64,000 nucleotides of DNA, taken from positions 32,001-96,000 of IMG/VR virus record IMGVR_UViG_3300022917_000008. One strand, 5' to 3'. This stretch comes from a virus. Lineage: Duplodnaviria > Caudoviricetes. The notes under the pieces were generated by a model that had not been told where the DNA came from, searched no databases, and worked only from the letters and a program-made list of their open reading frames with translations. A program made the translations under genes and the position numbers. Shown in pieces: positions 22,394 through 32,498 of this stretch. Positions within the stretch are counted from its first letter, which is position 1; every line of letters starts with the position of its first letter.

Positions 22394-23224
22394 TCAGACA
22401 GTTGCTAGCACATTGTCTGTGCTCTTGACAAACTGTACACCTGCAGCTTTGGCTTTGTTCCAGATGTCATTCACTGCAGTGTAGAATCCAGGCGGCAATC
22501 CAGGCACATCAGACATACAGTCCTCCATCACAAATATCTTGGGTGCCAACTGGGGCACTTCTGTGATGGCTTGGCGTAGTGAATTCACCACACAATGGCT
22601 CTTGGCTTCACCTGCCAGAAACACCCTCTCATATTCCATGAGTGTTTTGATGAGTGGTTGGTTGAACTGTGTCTTGGGGTCCCTAGGTATCTCAATGTTT
22701 GCCCTGAAGATACCAAAGTGTTCTGTGTACTGGTTGTCCCCCTTTGTGACGTAGTTCACAGGCTTGCCATTGCTGGATTCCCATTCACACACTGCCAGAT
22801 GGAGTGGTTTGTACAGAGCTGCACCTACAGAACCAATGAGGCAATGGTTAGGCCAGATGCAGTGAGTAAACTCACCTTGCTTCTCCAGTTCAGCCACATA
22901 GTCTATTGACCATGCAGGAGAGATACGAGGGGTGTACTTACCATCATTCAGGTCCTTGGGAGTGATGAGTGTAAATGGTGCTACAGGGCTACCATCTGCG
23001 TTCATCCACCAGCAGCTGTGTGCAATATCCAGAGGTCTGTGAGAATCCAGGCTCATGGAGATGTGATCTATCTCCTTGCTATTCTTCTGGATGAATGCAA
23101 CTACCCTGTCCATGTCCTTGGTTGCACCAGGTACTCCCAGTGCAGCTGTAAACTCAGGAGTAGCAATGTCCATGAAATCATTCTGACCATCAATGATCAA
23201 AAGAGCAATTCTTTTGTTGTTCAT
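22394..23224 (-). CDS. Nicotinamidase/isochorismatase-family cysteine hydrolase
   Basis: LLIIDGQNDF, LDSH, WPNHC, VTKG, AGEAKSHCV; start moved to ATG 23224 (MNNKRIALL). Confidence 0.85.
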   Translation of the reverse strand: MNNKRIALLIIDGQNDFMDIATPEFTAALGVPGATKDMDRVVAFIQKNSKEIDHISMSLDSHRPLDIAHSCWWMNADGSPVAPFTLITPKDLNDGKYTPRISPAWSIDYVAELEKQGEFTHCIWPNHCLIGSVGAALYKPLHLAVCEWESSNGKPVNYVTKGDNQYTEHFGIFRANIEIPRDPKTQFNQPLIKTLMEYERVFLAGEAKSHCVVNSLRQAITEVPQLAPKIFVMEDCMSDVPGLPPGFYTAVNDIWNKAKAAGVQFVKSTDNVLATV

Positions 23225-23251: not shown

Positions 23252-23510
23252 TACTGAGGAGTGTGTTGTTACACCAAATGCTCTGAGACTATTCCATGCC
23301 TCACATCTCCTAAGGAAATGGAACCTTAGGCTGCTTAACCTTCCATGTTTGACAGCATGGTATACATGGACCACGATTCATCTATGGAATATAAGTCCCC
23401 CACACCATTTGTTTGGAGATACTACCTATTACTAGGCTGTCCTTTCTCAAGACATTCCATTCGCAACTCATCATAGGATGGCTACTTCCAAGCCTACCTC
23501 CTCCTCAGTA
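23252..23510 (-). ncRNA. Structured RNA resembling 23S rRNA helices 43-44 (uL11-binding GTPase-associated centre) with a large insert
   Basis: 10-bp closing stem TACTGAGGAG/CTCCTCAGTA; 5' AGGAGGTAGGCTTGGAAGTAGCCATCCT; 3' GGTGTAACAACACACT. Confidence 0.7.
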
Positions 23511-23516
23511 ATAAGG

Positions 23517-23828
23517 TTACTCCATGTTGTGGATAGTGATGTCAGTACCCATAATGGTAACTGCAGACACCTTTTTCTTGTCCACCATGATGGTGGTGCC
23601 GTTACATGAGATGAGCATCTTGTTGGTGAGTTCAGACAGGTCCACTGTCTTCAGCGCTGGCTTAGCTGCAGCCTGTTTGTAGGAAGAACCAAGGTATCTC
23701 CTCATAGCCCTTATTGAGCCTGGGGTTGTACCCATTTCCTTAGCCAGCTGCTTGTCCCCTGATGGGTCTGCTGCCTGAATAGTGTCAATGTCTTGCTGTG
23801 TGAAGTCGAGATCATCATTCTTTTTCAT
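23517..23828 (-). CDS. Small protein with a possible HTH
   Basis: DKQLAKEMGTTPGSIRAMRRYLG. Confidence 0.6.
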   Translation of the reverse strand: MKKNDDLDFTQQDIDTIQAADPSGDKQLAKEMGTTPGSIRAMRRYLGSSYKQAAAKPALKTVDLSELTNKMLISCNGTTIMVDKKKVSAVTIMGTDITIHNME

Positions 23829-23910
23829 TGTATGTTGTTTTTTGTTTGGCTTAATAAAGGAGGTCTTACATAGACATGCAAGGCCTGTAATTTATACCCT
23901 TAAACTAAAA

Positions 23911-24315
23911 GTGGAGGTGAGGGGAGTTGAACCCCTGTCCAACTTCAGTATCAATGTGTAGGAGTTTATATGCTTATCTGTGTTTGTCTTCTACAGTAGA
24001 ATAGTCAATTCACTTATCGCGTAGCACTGGGCAGAATTGACAATCACCACACTACTTTAGGTAGTGACTCTTTTGCTTTAGCTTATTAGGCAGCTATAGC
24101 TACACCTGTGTAAAGGCTTCTTACAGCCCCTTTGCTTCTGCTGTCACCAGCTTTGGCTACACTTGCTTTCAGCATAAATGCTGATTTACCTACTTTATTA
24201 GCAGATATTGTTCCGTCTCATTTGTTAGGTACATTACTGTACTTTAGGCCCTCATGACGCTTGGGCCTGCATAACTACCTATCAATACACAAAGCTGTCT
24301 AAACCTGGCACCCCC
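23911..24315 (-). ncRNA. ssrA: tmRNA
   Basis: 5' GGGGGTGCCAGGTTTAGAC and 3' GACAGGGGTTCAACTCCCCTCACCTCCAC give a G3-U70 Ala acceptor; internal frame ends ...VAIAA-TAA-TAA. Confidence 0.9.
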
Positions 24316-31937: not shown

Positions 31938-32498
31938 TTATTTTGGATAGTTGAGTGTATATACATCTTTTATAGCCTGTTCTCCTTCCCTAGTTAGTTC
32001 CCTTGAACCTACACCAGTGAATTGCTTGTACAGTTCAGGTACTTCAGACTCTCTGAATGTATGGAAGTTATAGTTCCATACATACCACTTATTGGTTAGC
32101 ATGTCAAAGACCTTTACCTCATGCCCAGCCATTATACCAAACTGTACAGTCCAACCAGTACCCCCAGATACTATAGGATATGCAGTCTTGTTTACATAAC
32201 CCTTGTGATCCTTATGCCCAGGGGCTATGATATAGGATACAGCCACTACCTGCTGGGAGCCCATGTTAACCTGTAACCAATCCCTTCTCACATAATTCTT
32301 ACCACTAAACTCAGATGGTCTACCTAATACTAGGGCAGCTTTACTGAGTGAAATGTCAATCTGCTGCAGTATTGTAGGGTGTTGGGATTTGAGATCATTC
32401 TTGGACCACACGTTCACGGTAATATTAGAATGTTCAGCTAGGTCTGTCCATGCTTTATCAGCACCTGGAGCACCTCCTGTATGTAGTATTCTGCTCAT
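31938..32498 (-). CDS. SLOG-superfamily (YpsA/DprA-like) nucleotide-binding protein
   Basis: HTGGAPGAD, RRDWLQV, SGGTGWTV, FTGVGSR; start moved to MSRILH. Confidence 0.6.
   Translation of the reverse strand: MSRILHTGGAPGADKAWTDLAEHSNITVNVWSKNDLKSQHPTILQQIDISLSKAALVLGRPSEFSGKNYVRRDWLQVNMGSQQVVAVSYIIAPGHKDHKGYVNKTAYPIVSGGTGWTVQFGIMAGHEVKVFDMLTNKWYVWNYNFHTFRESEVPELYKQFTGVGSRELTREGEQAIKDVYTLNYPK

Follow-up and report, generated by a model that had tools for sequence, protein, structure and literature searches.

This report concerns a 259-nt non-coding RNA gene on the minus strand of a 156-kb phage (Duplodnaviria; Caudoviricetes; IMG/VR record IMGVR_UViG_3300022917_000008), at positions 23252-23510 of the 64,000-nt stretch that was analysed (record positions 32,001 to 96,000; hereafter, the window). 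An earlier interpretation made from the letters alone (hereafter, the sequence-only reading) had described the locus as an RNA resembling the uL11-binding GTPase centre of 23S rRNA, helices H43 and H44, split by an insert of about 190 nt. There is now very little doubt that it encodes a real non-coding RNA with the fold of the GTPase-associated centre (GAC), and that this RNA belongs to a family found in phages and in tRNA arrays. In window coordinates, and with the corresponding 23S positions where they apply, the RNA is composed as follows.

23252-23510, minus strand: whole RNA gene, 259 nt; a free-standing GAC mimic and U-type member of the family
23501-23510, minus strand: 5' strand of the closing helix P1, UACUGAGGAG; H42-like, positions ~1046-1055, pairing perfectly with 23252-23261
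23475-23499, minus strand: H43-like hairpin, AGGUAGGCUUGGAAGUAGCCAUCCU; equivalent to 23S 1057-1081 as aligned to E. coli 23S
23466-23474, minus strand: junction loop, AUGAUGAGU; equivalent to 1082-1090, with 1082:1086 as A:U and G1087, A1088, G1089 and U1090 retained
23279-23465, minus strand: insert 'Hx', 187 nt; a fourth helix or domain between U1090 and G1091, closed by UGC/GCA and a purine-rich internal loop
23275-23278, minus strand: UUUG linker joining the insert to H44; near-invariant in the family
23262-23274, minus strand: H44-like hairpin, GUGUAACAACACA; equivalent to 1091-1103, with U1092-A1099 and the loop GUAACA
23252-23261, minus strand: 3' strand of P1, CUCCUCAGUA; complement of 23501-23510, ending 28 nt before an ATG at 23224

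The closing stem of 10 bp that had been read from the sequence is indeed a perfect helix (23510-23501 with 23261-23252), and the insert announced at about 190 nt measures 187 nt (23465-23279). The H43-like hairpin is laid out as AGGUAGGC-UUGGAAGUA-GCCAUCCU, with UUGGAAGUA as its loop; position 1067 is G, 1072 is U, and the pair 1058:1080 is G-C. GAGU stands directly before the insert (23469-23466), and the H44 element, when extended to position 1104, reads GUGUAACAACACAC (1091-1104). The RNA harbors the H42-H43-H44 junction of the GAC fold, an H43 loop of the UUAGAAGCA type that reads UUGGAAGUA, and an H44 loop of the GUAAUA type that reads GUAACA. The tertiary signature of the GAC is present as well, namely the 1082:1086 pair, 1072 with 1092:1099, G1071 with G1091-C1100, and A1088. 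The RNA does not belong to a 23S rRNA gene, as it is closed by its own helix and lies outside any rRNA gene; the whole 64-kb window contains no rRNA match at the Rfam gathering score, and no family of Rfam 15 matches the RNA itself, at the gathering score or at E ≤ 10. Its minimum free energy (MFE) fold is only modestly better than those of shuffled sequences (z -2.75); support for the fold derives from the other copies.

Both ends of the RNA align with 23S rRNA, at 1046-1090 and 1091-1112, i.e., the tip of H42, H43, the 1082-1086 junction loop and H44, the reference being a real E. coli rrn operon (locus L108, strain SCU-204). A covariance model, R1, was built from eight other phage copies (147 positions; E-values rough), the window copy being absent from its seed alignment (A3). 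In the window, R1 gave a sole strong match, at 23253-23509 on the minus strand (79.4 bits, E 4.7e-17, model positions 1-147), and in the E. coli rrn operon a single one, at 23S 1046-1112 (37.7 bits, E 3.1e-7). As the model was built without the window copy and scores both molecules strongly, their likeness is far above chance, and the resemblance to H43-H44 on which the sequence-only reading was founded is borne out. Similarly, when one family member was compared by blastn with 28 Gb of E. coli genomes, only 23S ~1050-1085 was found (91.7% identity, E 3e-3, seven places per genome), and most of the first 66 members match 23S 1053-1088 of the rrn operon by blastn-short, with E-values down to 4e-11; for the window copy, the same comparison gave 84% identity over 25 nt (E 0.024).

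The alignment to a large-subunit (LSU) rRNA model that had been suggested as a check gave a concordant result. The Rfam LSU_bacteria model matches another family member weakly and locally, at model positions 1096-1145, and its structure line there contains G1055-C1104, H43, 1082:1086 and G1087-C1102, the very pairs assumed for the phage RNA. The 23S sequence quoted in the sequence-only reading agrees with the real rrn operon, save that AAAGAGU is the usual reading in bacterial 23S, as in the phage RNA; the Rfam bacterial LSU consensus, AAaGAgu, is identical to the phage RNA at this site. The E. coli SCU-204 copy of 23S reads GCCGGGGAUG at L108:2499-2505, possibly a strain variant or a sequencing error; we take K-12 23S to read GCCAGGAUG there, which would leave the SCU-204 copy with one extra base at 1053-1054. 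Over 1091-1100, the window H44 (GUGUAACAAC) is identical to the 23S H44 of bacteria of the Candidate Phyla Radiation (CPR) and of archaea, beyond which 23S continues with UCAC and the phage RNA with ACAC. The 23S of CPR bacteria (L129, L146, L156, L158) and of several archaea (L111, L116, L119, L125) reads GAAGUAGCC ... GUGUAACAAC, and such CPR and archaeal 23S with U1072 and U1092-A1099 scores 52-64 bits with R1, above E. coli 23S (38 bits).

The isolated GAC of rRNA is an autonomous domain that binds uL11 and thiostrepton. Between that domain (E. coli 1051-1108) and the phage RNA, the order of elements and the secondary structure are the same, the H43 and junction loops are nearly identical, G1087-C1102, 1082:1086 and the H43-H44 tertiary contacts are shared, and covariance models recognise each reciprocally. 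The phage RNA differs in having its own closing helix of 9-10 bp, an extra helix between U1090 and G1091 that turns the junction into a four-way one, A rather than U at position 1101, and tips (1067, 1096, 1097) that vary freely.

Absent from the sequence-only reading is that the window RNA is one member of a very large family, of which the insert is a variable fourth helix that carries a copy of the sarcin-ricin loop (SRL) in some members, though not in this one. The first relative emerged from a 28-nt match in Acinetobacter phage ME3, which pointed to an unannotated intergenic copy. The search of phage genomes for the split motif, likewise suggested earlier, was carried out as three exact-pattern scans of IMG/VR and has yielded at least 154 distinct members among the matches listed. 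They comprise a U-type set of 66 sequences (alignment A1) and a C-type set of at least 109 members, 87 of them distinct, among the matches listed; because exact patterns were used to gather them, the census and the conservation figures below are biased towards these patterns. The common plan consists of a closing helix of 9-10 bp, GGAnGUnGGCUUnGAAG(U/C)AGCCAUCnUnUAAnGAGU, a variable insert that is helical at its start and end, UUUG, and G(U/C)GUAAnA(A/G)CACAC, and the span 1054-1104 ranges from 79 to 496 nt, with a median near 200, over the at least 154 members. The window RNA conforms to this plan, with its own P1, GAGU before the insert, UUUG after it, and UGC/GCA at the base of Hx.

Named carriers include the Prevotella Lak megaphages, Ralstonia phage RSP15, Acinetobacter phage ME3, Pectobacterium phage CBB, Yersinia phage fHe-Yen9-04, Xanthomonas phages XaC1 and XacN1, and Cronobacter phage GAP32 (248 nt, 76.6 bits); for GAP32 and ME3, carrier status was checked individually. 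The copy is located at about 289,513-289,760 on the plus strand in GAP32 (NC_019401), at about 161,970-162,300 on the minus strand in ME3 (NC_041884), and at about 95,690-95,980 in RSP15. Two members contain a further inserted hairpin, of 21 nt in L013:934-1111 (-) and of 58 nt in L071:4064-4327 (+), which separates U1078 from C1079 in the 3' strand of H43. Two other candidates were rejected. The stable RNAs rnaC and rnaD of phage T4 (species 1 and 2, beside the T4 tRNA genes) are not members, the sole R1 match there being a 12-bit chance match inside segB. The match in Paenibacillus phage Pd_22F is a genuine 23S fragment rather than a mimic; that record (L297, MZ092003 82477-85512) contains a genuine 23S gene of ~2.6 kb, either captured host DNA or an assembly artefact.

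The claim that selection acts on structure is supported across the family by the covariation of the helices, of 1082:1086, and of 1072 with 1092:1099. In the 66-sequence alignment, each of the nine P1 pairs has changed in both partners, and pairing is retained in 88% of the cells. In the same sequences, the pair 1058:1080 occurs as UA (28), GC (20), AU (13) and CG (3), and 1064:1074 as C-G (61), G-C (3) and A-U (2). The covariation score of this alignment was reached by none of 500 shuffles, and it drops to a quarter in slid controls. The 87 distinct C-type members have the same pattern of covariation, P1 included. The only pair that closes the junction loop, 1082:1086, is U:A in 51, A:U in 6 and C:G in 5 U-type members, and U:A in 48, C:G in 27 and A:U in 6 C-type ones. 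The first three pairs of Hx covary as well (U-A, A-U, G-C and C-G) in 58-62 of the 66 sequences, and the UUUG linker is kept in 63-66 of the 66 U-type members and is usual in the C-type set.

Conservation extends to the tertiary fold. In E. coli rRNA, H43 and H44 are held together by contacts of C1072 with C1092 and G1099, and of G1071 with G1091 and C1100 (PMC2952862). In the family, a U at 1072 goes with U-A or U-G at 1092:1099 in 65 of 66 members, and a C at 1072 with C-G in 107 of 109 members among the matches listed; over all members so listed, the rule holds in 172 of 175, while G1071 and G1091-C1100 show no variation. Since the scans that fixed one side of this relation left the other free, it represents a real three-way covariation. 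Genuine 23S obeys the same rule, with C and C-G in E. coli and cyanobacteria, and U and U-A in CPR bacteria and archaea. The 'compensatory C-G to U-A' change that had been noticed in H44 is thus real, and because rRNA and family follow the rule alike, it is to be understood as part of a triple that includes 1072.

The position of the insert is constant in the family, between U1090 and G1091, where it converts the three-way junction into a four-way one. Its size, on the other hand, ranges from ~40 to more than 400 nt, and the inserts of different lineages do not align. The window copy, ME3, RSP15, GAP32 and a Lak-like group have in common a purine-rich internal loop above the 3-bp base, with GA(G/A) opposite (U/C)AGA; a kink-turn reading of this loop is doubtful, as the C-stem pairs that it requires form inconsistently. 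From ten members that share a subtype, RNAalifold obtained no more than P1, H43 and H44. On its own, the window insert has an MFE of -56.4 kcal/mol (z about -2.8), with several hairpins predicted. A metagenome scan for relatives of this insert returned one identical copy (L286) and two large members that bear a different insert; no relative of it was found among the collected loci, and a 17-mer specific to it gave three chance matches in IMG/VR. Several distant inserts (L080, L001, L032, L105, L296) share CAGGGGAAGGAC(A/C)AGU, for which blastn-short found no rRNA counterpart.

Copies of the SRL of 23S rRNA (H95), present in part of the family, are AGUACGAGAGGA hairpins that occur one or two per insert in 16 of the 154 members among the matches listed. 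Their stems covary (UUCCA/UGGAA, UUGCA/UGCAA, UUUCA/UGAAA), and some copies are degenerate (AGUACAAGCGGA). Judged by their sequences, the SRL-bearing members are RNAs in which both rRNA elements of the GTPase-docking site are joined in one molecule. Large members of this kind include L088:4825-5254 (+), L010:853-1262 (-), L044, L072, L005, L284, L285 and their relatives; in the window copy, the motif AGUACGAGAGGA was not found within three mismatches.

In the window, the RNA gene is surrounded by the following genes.

23909-24315, minus strand: transfer-messenger RNA (tmRNA) gene (Rfam RF00023, 75.6 bits; also found by aragorn), 399 nt upstream of the RNA
23517-23828, minus strand: open reading frame (ORF) of 103 aa between the tmRNA and the RNA, with a faint match to Sigma70_r4_2 (helix-turn-helix, HTH; E 0.067)
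22394-23224, minus strand: ORF of 276 aa that starts 28 nt downstream of the RNA; Pfam Isochorismatase at E 0.14 over 13 profile positions, an N-terminal motif only; the earlier label 'nicotinamidase' is putative

The same-strand stable-RNA gene that accompanies the window copy is thus the tmRNA, the tRNA arrays of the window lying elsewhere, at 44-56 kb on the plus strand. Among the matches listed, a tRNA or tmRNA gene is found within 3 kb of the RNA in 109 of 154 members and within 500 nt in 92 of 154, and 583 of the 584 nearby tRNA and tmRNA genes are on the strand of the RNA. In many members, a tRNA starts or ends 2-15 nt from the closing helix, a spacing that suggests co-transcription and release by tRNA-processing enzymes. 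No protein family is common to the neighbourhoods across lineages; the clusters that were found (HNH/HTH homing-endonuclease-like proteins, TerD, RNase H) are each restricted to related phages. TerD-domain genes lie directly downstream of the RNA in several of these (L032:8490-9194 (-), L018, L023, L086, L087, L090, L100), an adjacency that is probably due to a common gene order among related phages and not to a link in function. Next to the RNA and tRNA clusters of otherwise unrelated phages, homing-endonuclease-like genes of the HNH and HTH kinds are found repeatedly (L057:8708-9763 (-), L098:10096-10785 (+)), as is also described for T4 segB and for the tRNA L-arrays of cyanobacteria. Neither uL11 (PF00298) nor a translational GTPase (PF00009) was found in five carrier genomes estimated to be at least 93% complete, that of the window phage included; any such partner would therefore be that of the host.

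Relatives without an insert exist outside phages. When one genome of each prokaryote species was scanned for the U-type 5' motif, the matches comprised the genuine 23S of CPR bacteria and archaea, together with about twenty free-standing copies in filamentous cyanobacteria that have no rRNA nearby. The carriers include Microcoleus, Moorena, Calothrix, Oscillatoria, Potamolinea and plasmid pAfl69 of Dolichospermum flos-aquae CCAP 1403/13F (L287:2462-2574; about 66,359-66,471 on the plasmid); other loci are L110:4526-4581, L127:363-424 (-), L149:4311-4366, L133, L143, L148, L122, L123 and L160. These copies measure 56-70 nt, retain U1101, and are followed by a conserved 3' extension of ~55 nt (GGAGUCCCUCUAGUAACUGAGAAAACGC...CUUGCACGC); one of them matches Rfam LSU_eukarya with 48.3 bits (E 1e-8). 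Most are located at the end of, or within, same-strand arrays of 18-29 tRNA genes. They are rare, the exact pattern being present in 3 of 401 sampled cyanobacterial genomes. R1 scores them above the 23S of the same organism, and two complete genomes have exactly one U-type copy beside three to five rRNA operons with C-type 23S, which shows that the cyanobacterial element is not a recent copy of host rRNA. The cyanobacterial copies and the phage RNA thus have in common that they are U-type GACs outside rRNA operons, on the strand of a tRNA array; unlike the window RNA, the former lack an insert, have U1101 and the 3' extension, and are chromosomal or plasmid-borne.

Genes in the vicinity of the cyanobacterial elements encode a 466-aa protein with tRNA_bind and RNA_ligase domains (L133:283-1680 (-)) and a 280-aa ADP-ribose glycohydrolase of the microbial PARG type (L110:2949-3788 (+)), and functions in RNA repair or de-ADP-ribosylation are possible in the same islands. 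According to PMC8421152, the tRNA L-arrays of cyanobacteria are passed on horizontally, are switched on by impaired translation, and promote survival in the presence of antibiotics that target the ribosome; the paper makes no mention of 23S, of L11 or of an element of this kind.

The role that we propose for the RNA is a trans-acting imitation, or decoy, of the ribosomal factor-docking site, a proposal in which belief and doubt are evenly balanced. The RNA would share a transcript with the stable-RNA genes next to it, would be released by trimming up to the closed P1 helix, and would adopt the GAC fold, which is compact and depends on Mg2+. Away from the ribosome, it would then bind ligands of this fold, in the first place the uL11 of the host and also, whether or not uL11 is bound, a ligand that targets the factor-docking site, and it might thereby serve as a decoy or sponge of that site during infection. 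Candidates for the ligand include a toxin directed at the GAC (e.g., an rRNA ADP-ribosyltransferase), RelA, or a translational GTPase. Such a mechanism is plausible because the isolated domain binds uL11 and thiostrepton, oligonucleotides of the SRL and GAC bind factors, and toxins hit both elements. Thus, EF-G and IF2 are bound by isolated SRL and GAC oligonucleotides, according to a passage of PMC3496166 that cites Munishkin & Wool 1997, and the toxin Tre23 ADP-ribosylates H44 of the GAC while VapC toxins cleave the SRL (PMC8661411). More tentatively, and with doubt prevailing, the RNA and host uL11 together might form an off-ribosome replica of the factor-docking site, a 'ribosome-in-pieces' that would absorb attack on the GAC and, in the larger members, also on the SRL. 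It would be used by large phages and mobile cyanobacterial tRNA arrays together with RNA-repair genes, tmRNA and spare tRNAs, and the attackers might be defence toxins that modify or cleave rRNA, or a host stress factor such as RelA. The genes that accompany the RNA, those for tmRNA and spare tRNAs and, among cyanobacteria, for an ADP-ribose hydrolase and an RNA ligase, fit a kit for sustaining translation under attack, as circumstantial evidence.

The decoy reading is compatible with everything seen, and several observations nevertheless weigh against it or against the strength of its support. Invariance at many H43 and H44 positions is partly built in by the search patterns. Position 1067 varies, with G in 35, A in 30 and U in 1 of the U-type members and A in 72, G in 13 and C in 2 of the C-type ones, and positions 1096 and 1097 vary freely; such variation at the tips speaks against ligands that need A1067. 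The fold of the window insert lacks comparative support and comes from energy prediction alone, because its only relative is an identical copy. The window RNA has no flanking tRNAs, only 28 nt separate it from an ORF, no terminator-like site lies in that gap, and a scan found no sigma-70-type promoter-like site on its strand. Given that the fold and the junction are kept and the tips are not, a ligand that reads the fold, uL11 being the most obvious one, fits better than one dependent on A1067.

The close spacing to the ORF at 23224 is what would be expected if the GAC copy were a cis-acting leader, i.e., the 5' untranslated region (UTR) of the operon that starts there, sensing free uL11 or another GAC ligand, as the sequence-only reading had suggested for uL11. 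The missing terminator-like site agrees with this, and so does the ~55-nt 3' extension of the cyanobacterial copies, which, upstream of tRNAs, of the RNA-ligase gene or of a conserved ORF of 280-300 aa, resembles an expression platform. Yet the element downstream is usually a tRNA or an unrelated gene across the at least 154 members, no neighbouring protein is conserved, the ORF in the window has no ribosomal-protein match, the five carrier phages tested have no uL11 gene, and P1 closes the molecule with no evident alternative pairing to the start region. We therefore consider a leader unlikely, and its uL11-sensing form is not upheld for an RNA that sits by tRNA and tmRNA genes. The same linkage to tRNAs, tight and on one strand in phages and L-arrays alike, would favor a role directed at tRNAs, in which the RNA binds their elbows or precursors as a chaperone, processing aid or protector of phage tRNAs. 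The GAC/uL11 region of the ribosome does touch the elbow of the incoming tRNA. The base that meets the elbow is A1067, which about half of the U-type members replace by G; moreover, the SRL copies of the large members point to ligands of the GTPase type, and the window copy adjoins a tmRNA rather than tRNAs, which makes such a role rather improbable, if somewhat less so than a leader.

The variation at 1067 bears in the same manner on the idea of a small-molecule sponge or aptamer for thiopeptides of the thiostrepton class, which would shield host ribosomes or sense the drug. Changes of A1067 weaken thiostrepton binding, so that weaker binding would be expected for the window copy with its G1067; G or C is common at this position in the family, 1096 and 1097 are free to vary, and many hosts are Gram-negative and poorly reached by thiopeptides. 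Against these points stand the binding of thiopeptides to H43/H44 of the GAC, as discussed in PMC8661411, and the aid to survival that L-arrays give under ribosome-targeting antibiotics (PMC8421152), and the sponge appears very unlikely on balance. Finally, high identity to 23S over 1053-1088, together with the real 23S fragment in the Pd_22F record, could suggest a non-functional relic, either a captured or decaying piece of host 23S or an intron-interrupted rRNA fragment. This we regard as extremely unlikely: its surroundings contain no further rRNA sequence, the domain has its own covarying helix that closes it, at least 154 diverged members keep secondary and tertiary pairs through compensatory change, and U-type copies occur in hosts and cyanobacteria whose 23S is C-type. 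In particular, a self-splicing intron within an rRNA-like exon was rejected, as the inserts, ~40 to more than 400 nt long, are variable and cannot be aligned, share no intron core, and, for the window copy and L088, match none of the Rfam intron families at E ≤ 10.

The preferred reading, a decoy acting in trans, has partial precedents. To our knowledge, the leaders of ribosomal-protein genes are the only place where copies of the protein-binding sites of rRNA occur, in the form of short motifs. Like those leaders (L1, L10, L20, S15, S4), the phage RNA reproduces, outside the ribosome, a site at which a ribosomal protein binds rRNA. The leaders, in contrast, are found in the 5' UTR of the cognate gene and copy a few contact nucleotides, whereas the phage RNA copies a whole domain with its tertiary fold, has no linkage to a uL11 gene, and lies among stable-RNA genes; no leader for uL11 is among those reported in a survey of such leaders (PMC7247131; Meyer 2018 review cited there). 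The pseudo-ToxI antitoxin mimic of phage PhiTE (PMC3475682) and the tRNAs, tmRNAs and Y-RNA-like RNAs of phages are likewise phage-borne stable RNAs that imitate host RNA; they differ from the present one in that it imitates an rRNA domain, for which no precedent was found. Neither in the literature searched nor in Rfam 15 are free-standing copies of the GAC described, be it from phages or from tRNA arrays.

What sets these RNAs apart is that an entire autonomous domain of rRNA has a gene of its own, with its tertiary fold kept by compensatory change. They amount to at least 154 distinct members in phages and occur also in tRNA arrays that spread horizontally, and some versions add the SRL, the other half of the GTPase-docking site. 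The idea of site imitation is directly testable, since cultured carriers exist (GAP32, ME3, RSP15, CBB) and it is well known how the 58-nt rRNA domain behaves biochemically with uL11, thiostrepton and EF-G. If it is true, imitation of the site would be a new tool of phages, used against the host or on behalf of host translation, and it would point to a hitherto unrecognised way in which the GTPase centre is attacked or controlled in the course of infection.

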